Positions 1,521-3,644 of a DNA stretch of 16,071 bases are shown one piece after another. Source of the stretch: a virus (taxonomy: Duplodnaviria; Heunggongvirae; Uroviricota; Caudoviricetes); IMG/VR virus record IMGVR_UViG_2711768058_000013, positions 1 to 16,071 of that record; one strand, given 5' to 3'. A program made the position numbers and the translations under genes. The notes beneath the pieces are model-generated. The model worked only from the letters and a program-made list of their open reading frames with translations, did not search any database and had not been told where the DNA came from. The number at the start of each line of letters is the position of its first letter. The first letter of the stretch is position 1.

Positions 1521-1548
1521 AGGTACAAAAAACCGCTCAGCGGCTGGT
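1521..1548 (-). terminator. Putative intrinsic terminator on the minus strand (hairpin plus T6)
   Basis: Read on the minus strand: AGCCGC-TGA-GCGGTT stem-loop (4 GC pairs plus G.U and A-T) followed by TTTTTT (complement of the A-run at 1527-1532). Lies between cassette 1 and the late-strand small gene. Confidence 0.35.
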
Positions 1549-1663
1549 TTAAGTTGTGTGGCGAAGTAACCACTCTTAACACGATACAATAGTTTTTGCG
1601 TACGCGTTAGTGGTTATGTAAACTTTCTCCATATAAAAACAGCAAAGAAGCGGATATTTTGAA

Positions 1664-2233
1664 ATGGCTACACTGGACGCATTCAGTAGAGTAATAACTC
1701 ATCATACTATTACGATCGATACACAATACCGTACACAGAAAATTGATGATAGCATCAGATCGAACTGTGTTTGCCCGGTACCAACAATGCGTGAACTTGC
1801 TTCTAAAATAGTACGTTGTAAAGCAATGATGCACAGTTATGAAAAAGGAGACTTAGTTTTAACTTTGCAAGATGTAATCTTCTTATCAAACAGAGCCGAT
1901 AAAAAACCCAGCCATCTTGGTCTTTTAATTAATGCTGTAGATAAAAATGGAAGCACTACTGTGTTAAAAAACATTAATACAGATGTTCGTACCGAAATAT
2001 CACCAAAACATGAGGAAGGTGAAGGTTACGAAGTTTCTTCTCATATGATTATTTCTCTAGACGGAAATATGCGAACCTATGACATGAGTTTTATGCCAAT
2101 ACCAGGAGTTTCCACAGCAAAAATAAATGGTTTCCTGAATAAAGTTCTCTTTAACGTAGCCAAAGATAATGAAGATATCTTTTCATGTAACACTTTAACA
2201 AATGAAGTATCAAGTTTAACAAAGAAAAAATAA
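1664..2233 (+). CDS. Hypothetical protein, AT-rich cargo (cassette 1, ORF A)
   Basis: 189-aa ORF, low GC compared with flanking phage genes, ATG at 1664, on the strand opposite to the flanking phage operon. No recognisable domain. Ends in a Lys-rich tail encoded by an A6 tract. Confidence 0.5.
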   Translation: MATLDAFSRVITHHTITIDTQYRTQKIDDSIRSNCVCPVPTMRELASKIVRCKAMMHSYEKGDLVLTLQDVIFLSNRADKKPSHLGLLINAVDKNGSTTVLKNINTDVRTEISPKHEEGEGYEVSSHMIISLDGNMRTYDMSFMPIPGVSTAKINGFLNKVLFNVAKDNEDIFSCNTLTNEVSSLTKKK

Positions 2234-2283
2234 AAGTATTATACAAGCCAGTCTTTGATATATCTGGAAAGTTAGATGAAGAT

Positions 2284-2691
2284 TTGTTCAATAAAATAAA
2301 TAAAGAAGGACTTTCTGATGTCGTTTTGGTAAAGAATGAATACAGAACTATTAATGCGCCAGATGTTAACGCGGCTATTATTCCTAAAGAAAGTACTTTA
2401 CGCTTAGTACCAAACCATGGCCCCAACAATGTCCTTGGATGGATAAAATCTGTCTCAAACTTCTTTAAAGAAGATAAAAATGGAGGTTATGACTTAATAA
2501 AAATAAAATTCAAAGAGCCAGAGACAGGATTCACAAGACAAGTTGACCTTCAAACTTCAAATGTAAGGCTCGATGGGCTGGAAAAAACATTTATCAAAAA
2601 GAGTGTAATAAATGGTTTTTCTTCGCGCTTAAAGGATTCTTATGATAGTATTAACATGGAGTTTGTGAATAAGATTATCGAGGTCATGTGA
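2284..2691 (+). CDS. Hypothetical protein (cassette 1, ORF B), possibly the frameshifted C-terminal part of ORF A
   Basis: 135-aa ORF with no ATG start (first start codon is TTG at 2284 with a weak RBS). Its frame is open back to 2206, overlapping the last 28 nt of ORF A. The stop at 2689-2691 is followed by GAGG and the ATG of ORF C. Confidence 0.45.
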   Translation: MFNKINKEGLSDVVLVKNEYRTINAPDVNAAIIPKESTLRLVPNHGPNNVLGWIKSVSNFFKEDKNGGYDLIKIKFKEPETGFTRQVDLQTSNVRLDGLEKTFIKKSVINGFSSRLKDSYDSINMEFVNKIIEVM

Positions 2692-2698
2692 GGCTAAT

Positions 2699-3274
2699 AT
2701 GATTAGTATATTTTCACATTTATTTAGACCGTTTGGTTACCTTTTTATTAAGGGAATTAGTGGTAAGTGCGCATACGATTTTTATGCACCTGCAGGGCTT
2801 GCTGTGATTTCTTTTTTTTACTTTTATTTATTTAAAATACCCACATCAGACCTACTAAAAGATGGCGGCTTTATTAAGTCTATATCTGGATTTGTATCAA
2901 ATCTGCCAGGTTTTTATATAGCAGCTCTTGCAGCAATAGCCACTTTCAACAGAGAACAAATTGACTACCCTCTGATAGGAACTAATGGCACGCCTTTTAT
3001 TAAAATTACACGAACAAAAGAAAATGGTAGAATTGTTGACACTCAAGAGAAACTTACCAGAAGATTATTTCTGTGCATGTTATTTTCATTTTTAACTGCC
3101 CTCAGCATATGCATAGTGATTTTCAACGCTTTTATCACACCACTAATAAACATACTGAATAATGATATAGCAAACTGGTGCTATATCATTATCTTTTTAT
3201 TCCTTACATGGCAAATGCTTGTTTCAACATTTTTTGGACTATACTATCTTGGTGATAGGATTCACATTAATTAA
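2699..3274 (+). CDS. Integral membrane protein, about four predicted TM helices (cassette 1, ORF C)
   Basis: 191-aa ORF with GAGG RBS 6-7 nt upstream of ATG 2699. Four long hydrophobic stretches (AGLAVISFFYFYLF; FYIAALAAIATF; LFLCMLFSFLTALSICIVIF; WCYIIIFLFLTWQMLVSTFFGLYYL). Its 3' end overlaps the convergent Q gene by 8 bp. Confidence 0.6.
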   Translation: MISIFSHLFRPFGYLFIKGISGKCAYDFYAPAGLAVISFFYFYLFKIPTSDLLKDGGFIKSISGFVSNLPGFYIAALAAIATFNREQIDYPLIGTNGTPFIKITRTKENGRIVDTQEKLTRRLFLCMLFSFLTALSICIVIFNAFITPLINILNNDIANWCYIIIFLFLTWQMLVSTFFGLYYLGDRIHIN

Positions 3275-3644
3275 CTACCATAATGGGGTTTATAGTTATT
3301 ATTACACCGCTGATAAACCCCATGGCAGTCTGCAATTCCTTCCTAATTGTGCCATCTGAACATCTTCTCTTCTTGGCAATAGTGCGTAATGAGATACCAA
3401 TAACAAAGTGAGCTATGATCAGCTCATATTCCTCTGGTTTATACTTTCGCAACCGAGCCACACAACCGTCTATCATGATGCCTTCATCATCATCACACTG
3501 GAGACGTGACTTTTTACCGTGTGGTAAAAGTCCCTTGAAACCAGCCGCTATCGGCTGCCAGTCCACACCACTATTTTCTGCTGCAGCCCATGCTCCCCAG
3601 CGGTCCAATACTTCATACATATCACGCATCAGCTTTCTCCACAA
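3267..3644 (-). CDS. Late-gene antitermination protein Q (QuuD-like short Q family)
   Basis: 125-aa ORF. The N-terminal WGAWAA motif, the Cys-containing middle and the C-terminal HTH-like segment resemble, as I recall it, the short Q antiterminators of E. coli prophages (DLP12 QuuD type). Last gene of the coupled minus-strand operon. Confidence 0.75.
   Translation of the reverse strand: MWRKLMRDMYEVLDRWGAWAAAENSGVDWQPIAAGFKGLLPHGKKSRLQCDDDEGIMIDGCVARLRKYKPEEYELIIAHFVIGISLRTIAKKRRCSDGTIRKELQTAMGFISGVIITINPIMVVN

Follow-up and report, generated by a model that had tools for sequence, protein, structure and literature searches.

The cassette at positions 1664 to 3274 of the virus record IMGVR_UViG_2711768058_000013 (IMG/VR, Caudoviricetes) is most probably a two-gene phage-exclusion (abortive-infection) module of the RexAB type, belonging to PDC-M53 and carried as accessory cargo by an Escherichia coli lambdoid prophage, with the gene for the antiterminator Q on one side and the late control region on the other. 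It was analysed within a stretch of 16,071 nucleotides, here called the window. Through its family the cassette can be connected, by an indirect route, to RexABpp (PP_5643/PP_5644) of the Pseudomonas putida prophage P1, a system that gives protection from phages of three species (Rosendahl et al. 2026, PMC12894663). We describe here the gene structure with its frameshift, the family membership, the fold match, the conserved synteny and the accessory status of the cassette. New are the correction of two reading frames to a single gene, the RexA fold for PDC-M53A, the link between PDC-M53 and RexABpp, the wide spread of the family and the variable slot next to Q. With these results, a name, a fold and a tested relative can be given to 'hypothetical proteins' that occur on 1000 or more public E. 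coli contigs.

The split soluble-protein gene and its membrane partner

The original prediction, made from the nucleotide letters alone, had placed three plus-strand open reading frames (ORFs) of low GC content at this site. Their coordinates and composition held (GC 0.30-0.36 across 1650-3300 versus 0.47-0.59 on both sides), but the number of genes did not. Judged from the sequence, ORF A and ORF B are the halves of one 342-residue gene, and the cassette consists of two genes, not three. The overlap of the last ORF with Q was found as predicted and amounts to 8 bp, tail to tail, between the end of the third ORF (3274) and the end of Q (3267). The features are as follows.

1664..2691, plus strand: rexA-like gene (PDC-M53A family), 342 residues when intact, split in the window
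1664-2233, plus strand: ORF A, 189 residues, the N-terminal part of the rexA-like gene (residues 1-189)
2225..2233, plus strand: frameshift site, an A6 run (2225-2230) followed by TAA (2231-2233)
At least 2212 to 2691, plus strand: open C-terminal frame of the rexA-like gene
2284-2691, plus strand: ORF B, 135 residues, called in the C-terminal frame from a TTG at 2284
2699-3274, plus strand: third ORF, the rexB-like gene (PDC-M53B family), 191 residues, intact
3267-3644, minus strand: Q antiterminator gene (PF06530, E 2.8e-45), convergent on the cassette

An ORF of 190 codons is expected by chance with a probability of about 4e-7 (our own calculation for 33% GC, with about 7.5% stops among random codons), and full-length, conserved homologues exist for all three cassette ORFs. 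Such lengths would not be expected of random ORFs at this base composition. Pfam gave only sub-threshold noise for the three ORFs (HTH_SB, Peptidase_S78, DUF2721), and an Rfam scan of the whole window gave no match.

The frameshift was seen in pairwise alignments with the close relative L001 and with L002, where the A run of the window lacks one A; intact alleles have A7. In the A7 frame, translation continues (…TKKKIKV…) to the 342-residue protein WP_001433853.1. All 15 RefSeq matches span 1702 nucleotides versus 1701 in the query, and each of these 15 complete E. coli genomes, all carriers of the cassette, had the extra A and the continuous 342-residue ORF. The protein families are divided in the same way. 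In PHROG 9879 (340 residues) ORF A aligned to positions 1-188 and ORF B to positions 207-340, and the PADLOC PDC-M53A profiles were likewise split between the two. Apart from the missing A, the window and L001 differ at one further base in 1.7 kb.

The exact split products also occur elsewhere, the 189-residue protein on 25 public contigs and the 135-residue protein on 90, compared with at least 1000 contigs for the exact 191-residue membrane protein. Since the split products recur on so many contigs, the deletion is a minority allele across many assemblies and not obviously a single sequencing error, recurrent homopolymer miscalls being a possibility. A programmed frameshift common to the family was rejected, because the lysine run is not conserved in homologues of other genera and A7 is in frame in all complete genomes. 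Under standard decoding, a full-length sensor would not be possible from the window allele. As its sensor gene is broken by the one-base deletion in the A7 run, this allele is predicted to be most likely impaired in defence, while the membrane protein could still be produced without the full-length sensor. Six A residues directly before a stop codon form a slip-prone context; if tRNA-Lys slipped by -1 on A6 while TAA occupied the A site, exactly the intact sequence would result.

A soluble protein followed by a translationally coupled protein with four transmembrane (TM) segments had been predicted, and this layout was borne out. The third ORF starts 7 nucleotides past the stop codon of ORF B (2689-2691), and a GAGG ribosome-binding site at 2690-2693 overlaps this stop, which makes translational coupling of the 191-residue gene to the preceding gene plausible. 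The AlphaFold2 model of the 191-residue protein was confident (predicted local distance difference test, pLDDT, 87.6; predicted template modelling score, pTM, 0.83). Four long helices are seen at residues 23-44, 58-82, 121-153 and 156-189, and helices 2 and 3 are joined by a loop with a beta hairpin (100-118). A strict Kyte-Doolittle threshold was passed by helices 3 and 4 alone; helices 1 and 2 are moderately hydrophobic. Lysine and arginine are enriched at the N-terminus (3 residues) and in the 84-122 loop (8 residues). Because of this concentration, the positive-inside rule favours a topology in which both termini and the large loop would be cytoplasmic (N-in/C-in). Three regions were invariant in 34 diverse M53B homologues: LPGFxIAALAA in helix 2, RR..L..F..L at the start of helix 3, and Q172 with GLYYLG at the end of helix 4. 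We presume this inner-membrane protein to be the effector of the system.

A sigma-70 scan found promoter-like sites no more frequently than in shuffled sequence, and no promoter of the cassette could be named. One such site, TTAACA-16 nt-GATTAT at 2651-2678 on the plus strand, lies within the end of the sensor gene just before the membrane-protein gene. It is reminiscent of the separate rexB promoter of lambda, the count of such sites being at the level of the shuffles.

Membership in PDC-M53 and the probable link to RexABpp

The 191-residue protein matched the PADLOC profile PDC-M53B with an E value of 1.7e-54 (residues 4-190 on profile positions 2-186 of 188) and PHROG 8257 with 1.3e-99. PDC-M53A profiles were matched by ORF A (9.5e-12, profile positions 6-172 of 324) and by ORF B (5.4e-16, profile positions 201-316 of 320), and the intact E. 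coli orthologue reached 1.3e-31 over 8-340. Both cassette proteins are therefore members by direct hidden Markov model matches, and their adjacency and order on one strand, A upstream of B, are those of the family; the B gene is intact and the A gene is split. The PDC systems are 'phage defence candidates', proposed because their members lie within BREX, DISARM or type I restriction-modification loci, and 145 such candidates were listed as untested (Payne et al. 2024, bioRxiv 10.1101/2024.01.29.577857). A literature search for 'PDC-M53' found no publication with that name. Whereas PDC-M53 had been a candidate by guilt-by-embedding, the present analysis adds the assignment of the RexA fold and the connection with RexABpp.

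The breadth of the family was examined by scanning the GTDB representative genomes with the M53B profile, which returned 56 loci. Loci of Gamma-, Beta- and Alphaproteobacteria were compared (58 in all), and 53 had the M53A gene directly upstream of M53B on the same strand. The spacing ranged from a 53-nt overlap to an 83-nt gap and mostly from a 14-nt overlap to a 16-nt gap. Among the five exceptions were one B gene at a contig start and one gene fragment. The contexts of the pair are mobile and heterogeneous. In Halomonas it lies in a P2-like prophage adjoining an Eco29kI restriction-modification system, and the 150 ORFs flanking M53 pairs include type I restriction subunits, Vsr, methylases, integrases, ArdC and AbiEii-like ATPases. 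In Vibrio cyclitrophicus (L004, 1913-8558) the pair ends a run of small genes with a PM2-type coat protein P2 (PF18628/PF25513), so PDC-M53 is also carried by corticovirus-like prophages. With PDC-M53 alone extending over three proteobacterial classes, these findings suggest that Rex-type modules of a sensor and a membrane effector occur far more widely than the five systems described to date would indicate.

RexABpp was placed in this family by way of the published cloning primers. Those for PP_5644 encode MLIGQLAKP… and …GLYYLGYKLQ, and the one for PP_5643 encodes MHRTAT…; the reading frame of the 3' primer of PP_5643 is ambiguous. In PP_5644 the GLYYLG corresponds to the motif that is invariant at the C-terminus of M53B proteins. 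A search of the GTDB representative genomes for an exact 27-mer of the PP_5644 primer gave no match, and a related locus of Pseudomonas sp. 286 (L053) was used instead. It encodes a 188-residue protein, MLISQLTKP…GLYYLGYKLQE, and directly upstream a 330-residue protein that starts with MHRTAT. The two proteins scored 4.8e-71 with PDC-M53B and 1.5e-149 with PDC-M53A, respectively, and the A protein matched the E. coli A profile with 93.5% probability over 288 columns. Suppressor mutations in the membrane protein of RexABpp were reported at W25, F35, L55, T103, S145, G153 and Y181 (PMC12894663); W25, F35, L55, G153 and Y181 are conserved in L053. The membrane partner in RexABpp has four TM segments and is at least 181 residues long (PMC12894663), and the sizes of the pair fit PDC-M53 (about 330 and 190 residues) rather than lambda Rex (279 and 144). 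Primer-encoded termini and L053 thus indirectly point to RexABpp as a member of PDC-M53, which would make the window cassette a homologue of an experimentally validated Rex-type defence and ties the PDC-M53 candidate to a tested system.

The two systems differ in several respects. RexABpp comes from P. putida, the cassette from E. coli, and the membrane proteins are about 40% and the soluble proteins about 20% identical. RexABpp lies downstream of a CI-like repressor gene, whereas the cassette converges on Q between Q and the late control region. In the window, moreover, the sensor gene of the cassette is frameshifted. An E. coli member offers a system for genetics alongside lambda Rex, and the natural intact and frameshifted alleles are a ready pair to probe the contribution of the sensor.

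The predicted RexA/RdgC fold and the proposed mode of action

The intact 342-residue protein was modelled with AlphaFold2 from an alignment of 23 sequences (mean pLDDT 76.9, pTM 0.66), and residues 96-121 were disordered. Its best fold matches in the PDB were lambda RexA, then RdgC, followed by CENP-N/CHL4/IML3, which is the same set of relatives that the RexA structure paper names. Among predicted viral structures, Foldseek matched four uncharacterised siphovirus proteins (E 1.5e-10 to 5.6e-8) and next a phage RdgC (E 1.5e-3, probability 0.91). The scores were modest, yet concordant across two methods and two libraries, and they support a RexA/RdgC two-domain fold for the modelled protein.

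The sequence methods do not detect this relation. At E<=1 the soluble-protein ORFs matched no RexA model in Pfam or PADLOC; as a control, lambda RexA was found with 9e-110 (PF15969 / PADLOC RexA). With hhalign, the E. coli A profile gave 0.1% probability to lambda RexA, which is not significant, and the M53A profile (63 sequences) gave 1.7% to a RexA profile (19 sequences), so that the HHpred result reported for PP_5643 was not reproduced at the sequence level. A search of the PDB sequences with the A profile (hmmsearch) found dynamin PH-domain noise only, at E about 0.5.

For the membrane protein, no RexB match was found in Pfam or PADLOC, and the B profile aligned to lambda RexB with a non-significant 0.8% (hhalign). 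Foldseek against BFVD gave nothing significant, and RexB was absent from the top 50 matches. The sole structural match of the full-length type was a 165-residue protein labelled as coming from Sbash, with a template modelling score of 0.44-0.49 and an E value of 0.85, which is not significant.

The original prediction of a RexAB-like module thus held for the family matches, the fold and the kinship with RexABpp, without detectable sequence homology of either protein to lambda RexA or RexB. What was found for the RexAB-type class is a RexA/RdgC fold, a downstream four-TM partner and, indirectly, homology to a validated system. For the lambda RexA and RexB families themselves, neither a RexA sequence match, nor a RexB sequence or fold match, nor a location next to cI was found. 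In lambda as in the cassette, a prophage-encoded soluble protein of the RexA/RdgC fold is followed by a four-TM inner-membrane protein, N-in/C-in, and the two are thought to act as sensor and membrane effector of an abortive-infection response. The cassette proteins are larger (342 vs 279 and 191 vs 144 residues), and the membrane protein has a 39-residue cytoplasmic loop with a beta hairpin. Unlike lambda Rex, the cassette is outside the immunity operon, is not co-transcribed with cI and adjoins Q. Functionally similar are also the Rex-like pairs of temperate actinobacteriophages (Sbash gp30/31, CarolAnn gp44/43, Butters gp30/31), which have no sequence relationship to the cassette and act in Gram-positive hosts.

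The trigger, the DNA binding, the membrane action, the synthesis of the proteins in the lysogen and the effect of the frameshift are proposed from homology with RexABpp and analogy with lambda Rex. In the lysogen both proteins would be made and the membrane protein would be silent. Upon superinfection, the RexA-like protein, probably a DNA-binding dimer, would sense a phage cue, perhaps DNA or DNA-protein intermediates. The activated RexA-fold protein would then switch on the four-helix membrane protein, which would impair membrane integrity and energetics, arrest growth and abort the infection. In RexABpp, overexpression of the soluble protein led to growth arrest and membrane permeabilisation, both dependent on the membrane protein (PMC12894663). 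With the window allele the membrane protein would be made while the full-length sensor is missing, except for any amount restored by a -1 slip on A6-TAA.

It is a serious possibility, falling somewhat short of an even chance, that the window copy is a decaying, non-functional remnant whose frameshifted sensor no longer contributes to exclusion; this would be compatible with the family assignment though not with a current function. The deletion creates the premature TAA at 2231-2233, and both partners are required for defence in RexABpp and in lambda Rex (PMC12894663). The split allele is also the rarer one by contig counts and occurs in none of the 15 complete genomes. Against decay, the membrane-protein gene and both sensor halves are otherwise undamaged, with the one other base difference to L001. 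The split allele on many independent contigs argues for an inherited or recurrent change rather than a one-off error, the A6-stop is slip-prone, and lambda RexB has activities that do not require RexA.

That the RexA-like protein mainly tunes lysis-lysogeny or induction of its own prophage, as lambda RexA stabilises the lytic state, with exclusion as a by-product, is unlikely. Lambda RexA modulates the CI-Cro switch without RexB (RexA papers), and CI-like genes (helix-turn-helix with Peptidase_S24) adjoin 4-5 of about 45 M53 pairs surveyed. The cassette, however, is placed beside Q and far from the immunity region, the CI/Cro genes being about 4 kb away in L001, and M53 pairs also occur in non-lambdoid contexts and outside obvious prophages. 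The strict coupling of A and B argues for a joint function, and the defence phenotype of RexABpp is clear.

An addiction module of the toxin-antitoxin kind, in which the soluble partner restrains a membrane toxin (compare Butters gp30/gp31 with altered roles), is very improbable. Growth arrest by an overexpressed RexA homologue does act through the RexB partner, RexABpp suppressors often had lost the entire prophage, and reversed roles are known in one Rex-like system (PMC12894663). But with A as the neutraliser of B, toxicity would be expected of the frameshifted allele, which is nevertheless found on tens of contigs; the RexABpp soluble protein activates, and does not neutralise, the membrane protein (PMC12894663).

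The slot between Q and the late genes

The original prediction had likened the cassette to moron cargo beside Q on the opposite strand, and the survey of related prophages agreed with this. Of the 5426 complete E. coli genomes searched by megablast, 15 carry the cassette, in each case beside the same Q and with an identity of at least 99%. The cassette is accessory and not a universal part of the phage late region. Among 50,697 INPHARED phage records it had no match. When complete E. coli genomes were queried with an in-silico 'empty site' in which the left flank was joined to Q, none had this Q allele without cargo. In prophages with Q genes 83-91% identical, other cargo was found in the same place and orientation.

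L065: a TIGR04255 protein and two unknowns
L067: a 'nucleoid-associated protein' and a 404-residue unknown
L068: a very large metallophosphoesterase
L069: two unknowns and a hydrolase of the metallo-beta-lactamase (MBL) fold
L070: Kiwa (PADLOC KwaA 1.9e-83, KwaB 2.3e-150)
L071: DUF262 and a HEPN-like nuclease, beside a cytosine methylase

The slot between the PF06530-type Q and the late genes is therefore a hotspot of variable cargo in related E. coli prophages; no description of it was found in the literature searched. The cargo genes run towards Q, and in some cases they extend into its 3' end (1525-3313 of the window compared with L065 and L067-L071). With Kiwa, DUF262/HEPN and several cassettes of unknowns, the slot is a place to seek further defence systems. 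Kiwa resembles the cassette as a two-gene defence of a small four-TM protein and a soluble protein of about 300 residues, and in E. coli GPEC1035 (L070) it occupies this very slot. Membership of the cassette in Kiwa was rejected, because no protein of the window matched KwaA or KwaB (DUF4868). In L069, the MBL-fold hydrolase (2347-3438) had weak PADLOC matches to the DRT-associated RTasMBL (1.6e-11) and to LmuA (3.3e-7), and its two partner proteins matched nothing in PADLOC; the L069 cargo is a possible unrecognised defence cassette.

An ordinary lysis accessory of the late region, such as a holin, antiholin or spanin-like protein, is extremely unlikely, although the cassette lies between Q and the holin gene in some prophages (L002) and its second product is a small multi-helix membrane protein. 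A lysis function was rejected because Pfam and PHROG gave no holin or spanin match and Q and the late operon are encoded on the other strand. Most prophages of this Q type carry other cargo in its place, and M53 genes occur in P2-like, PM2-like and non-phage contexts, always paired with the RexA-fold protein.

On the Q side of the slot, homology between Q genes ends 40-55 nucleotides before the Q stop, homologues aligning only from query position 403-421 onward. The last 40-55 or so nucleotides of Q (3267 to about 3313) were found only in carriers of the M53 cassette. The late-gene side and the repeat described further below have these features.

1525..1610, minus strand: conserved element of about 85 nucleotides abutting the cargo, with a hairpin and T run at 1545-1531
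3159..3192, both strands: perfect inverted repeat with arms of 14 bp and a 6-nt loop, lying in the coding sequence of the rexB-like gene

The 85-nt element is near-identical in all aligned prophages of this Q type, irrespective of the cargo or the downstream late genes, and ends in the GC hairpin and T run, which are terminator-like. In L066, which has a different Q type, unrelated sequence takes the place of the stretch upstream of the hairpin. Because the element co-varies with the Q type, we infer that it is a candidate for the cognate late promoter, Q-utilisation site or first terminator, and that the cargo was inserted between it and Q. The sigma-70 scan showed no convincing promoter at 1525-1610 or upstream of the cassette.

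A more far-reaching model would treat the gap between Q and the late element as a dedicated slot for defence cargo, with the Q 3' region and the 85-nt element as conserved anchors between which recombination would exchange the cassettes. The cargo, always mounted convergent on Q, would be silenced after induction by early-right transcription that passes through Q and enters it in antisense, and a slip-prone A7/A6 switch would set the ratio of sensor to effector. We regard this model as doubtful. If it were true, antisense silencing would spare the prophage's own lytic growth from a self-harming abortive-infection system, and the A7/A6 switch would amount to phase variation or to a -1 ribosomal slip at A6-TAA; Rex systems are sensitive to the sensor-to-effector ratio.

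The inverted repeat at 3159-3192 lies about 75-110 nucleotides past the Q stop on the Q strand, and hairpins of -16.4 and -17.6 kcal/mol were predicted on the two strands. The repeat is kept in L001 and L002. In 58 other M53 family members no comparable repeat was found, the longest arm being 9 bp in one of them and 3-6 bp in the rest. The hairpin might stop transcription leaving Q.

Beyond the late element, the window has a 75-residue ORF at 1201-1428 on the minus strand (PHROG 331; 67 residues in RefSeq, WP_000917724.1), which is also present in L066 (1902-2105). Together with the downstream DNA methyltransferase gene it follows two different Q types, and cargo is found in one of the two arrangements only. 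The same genes behind two Q types show modular exchange at the boundary between Q and the late region.

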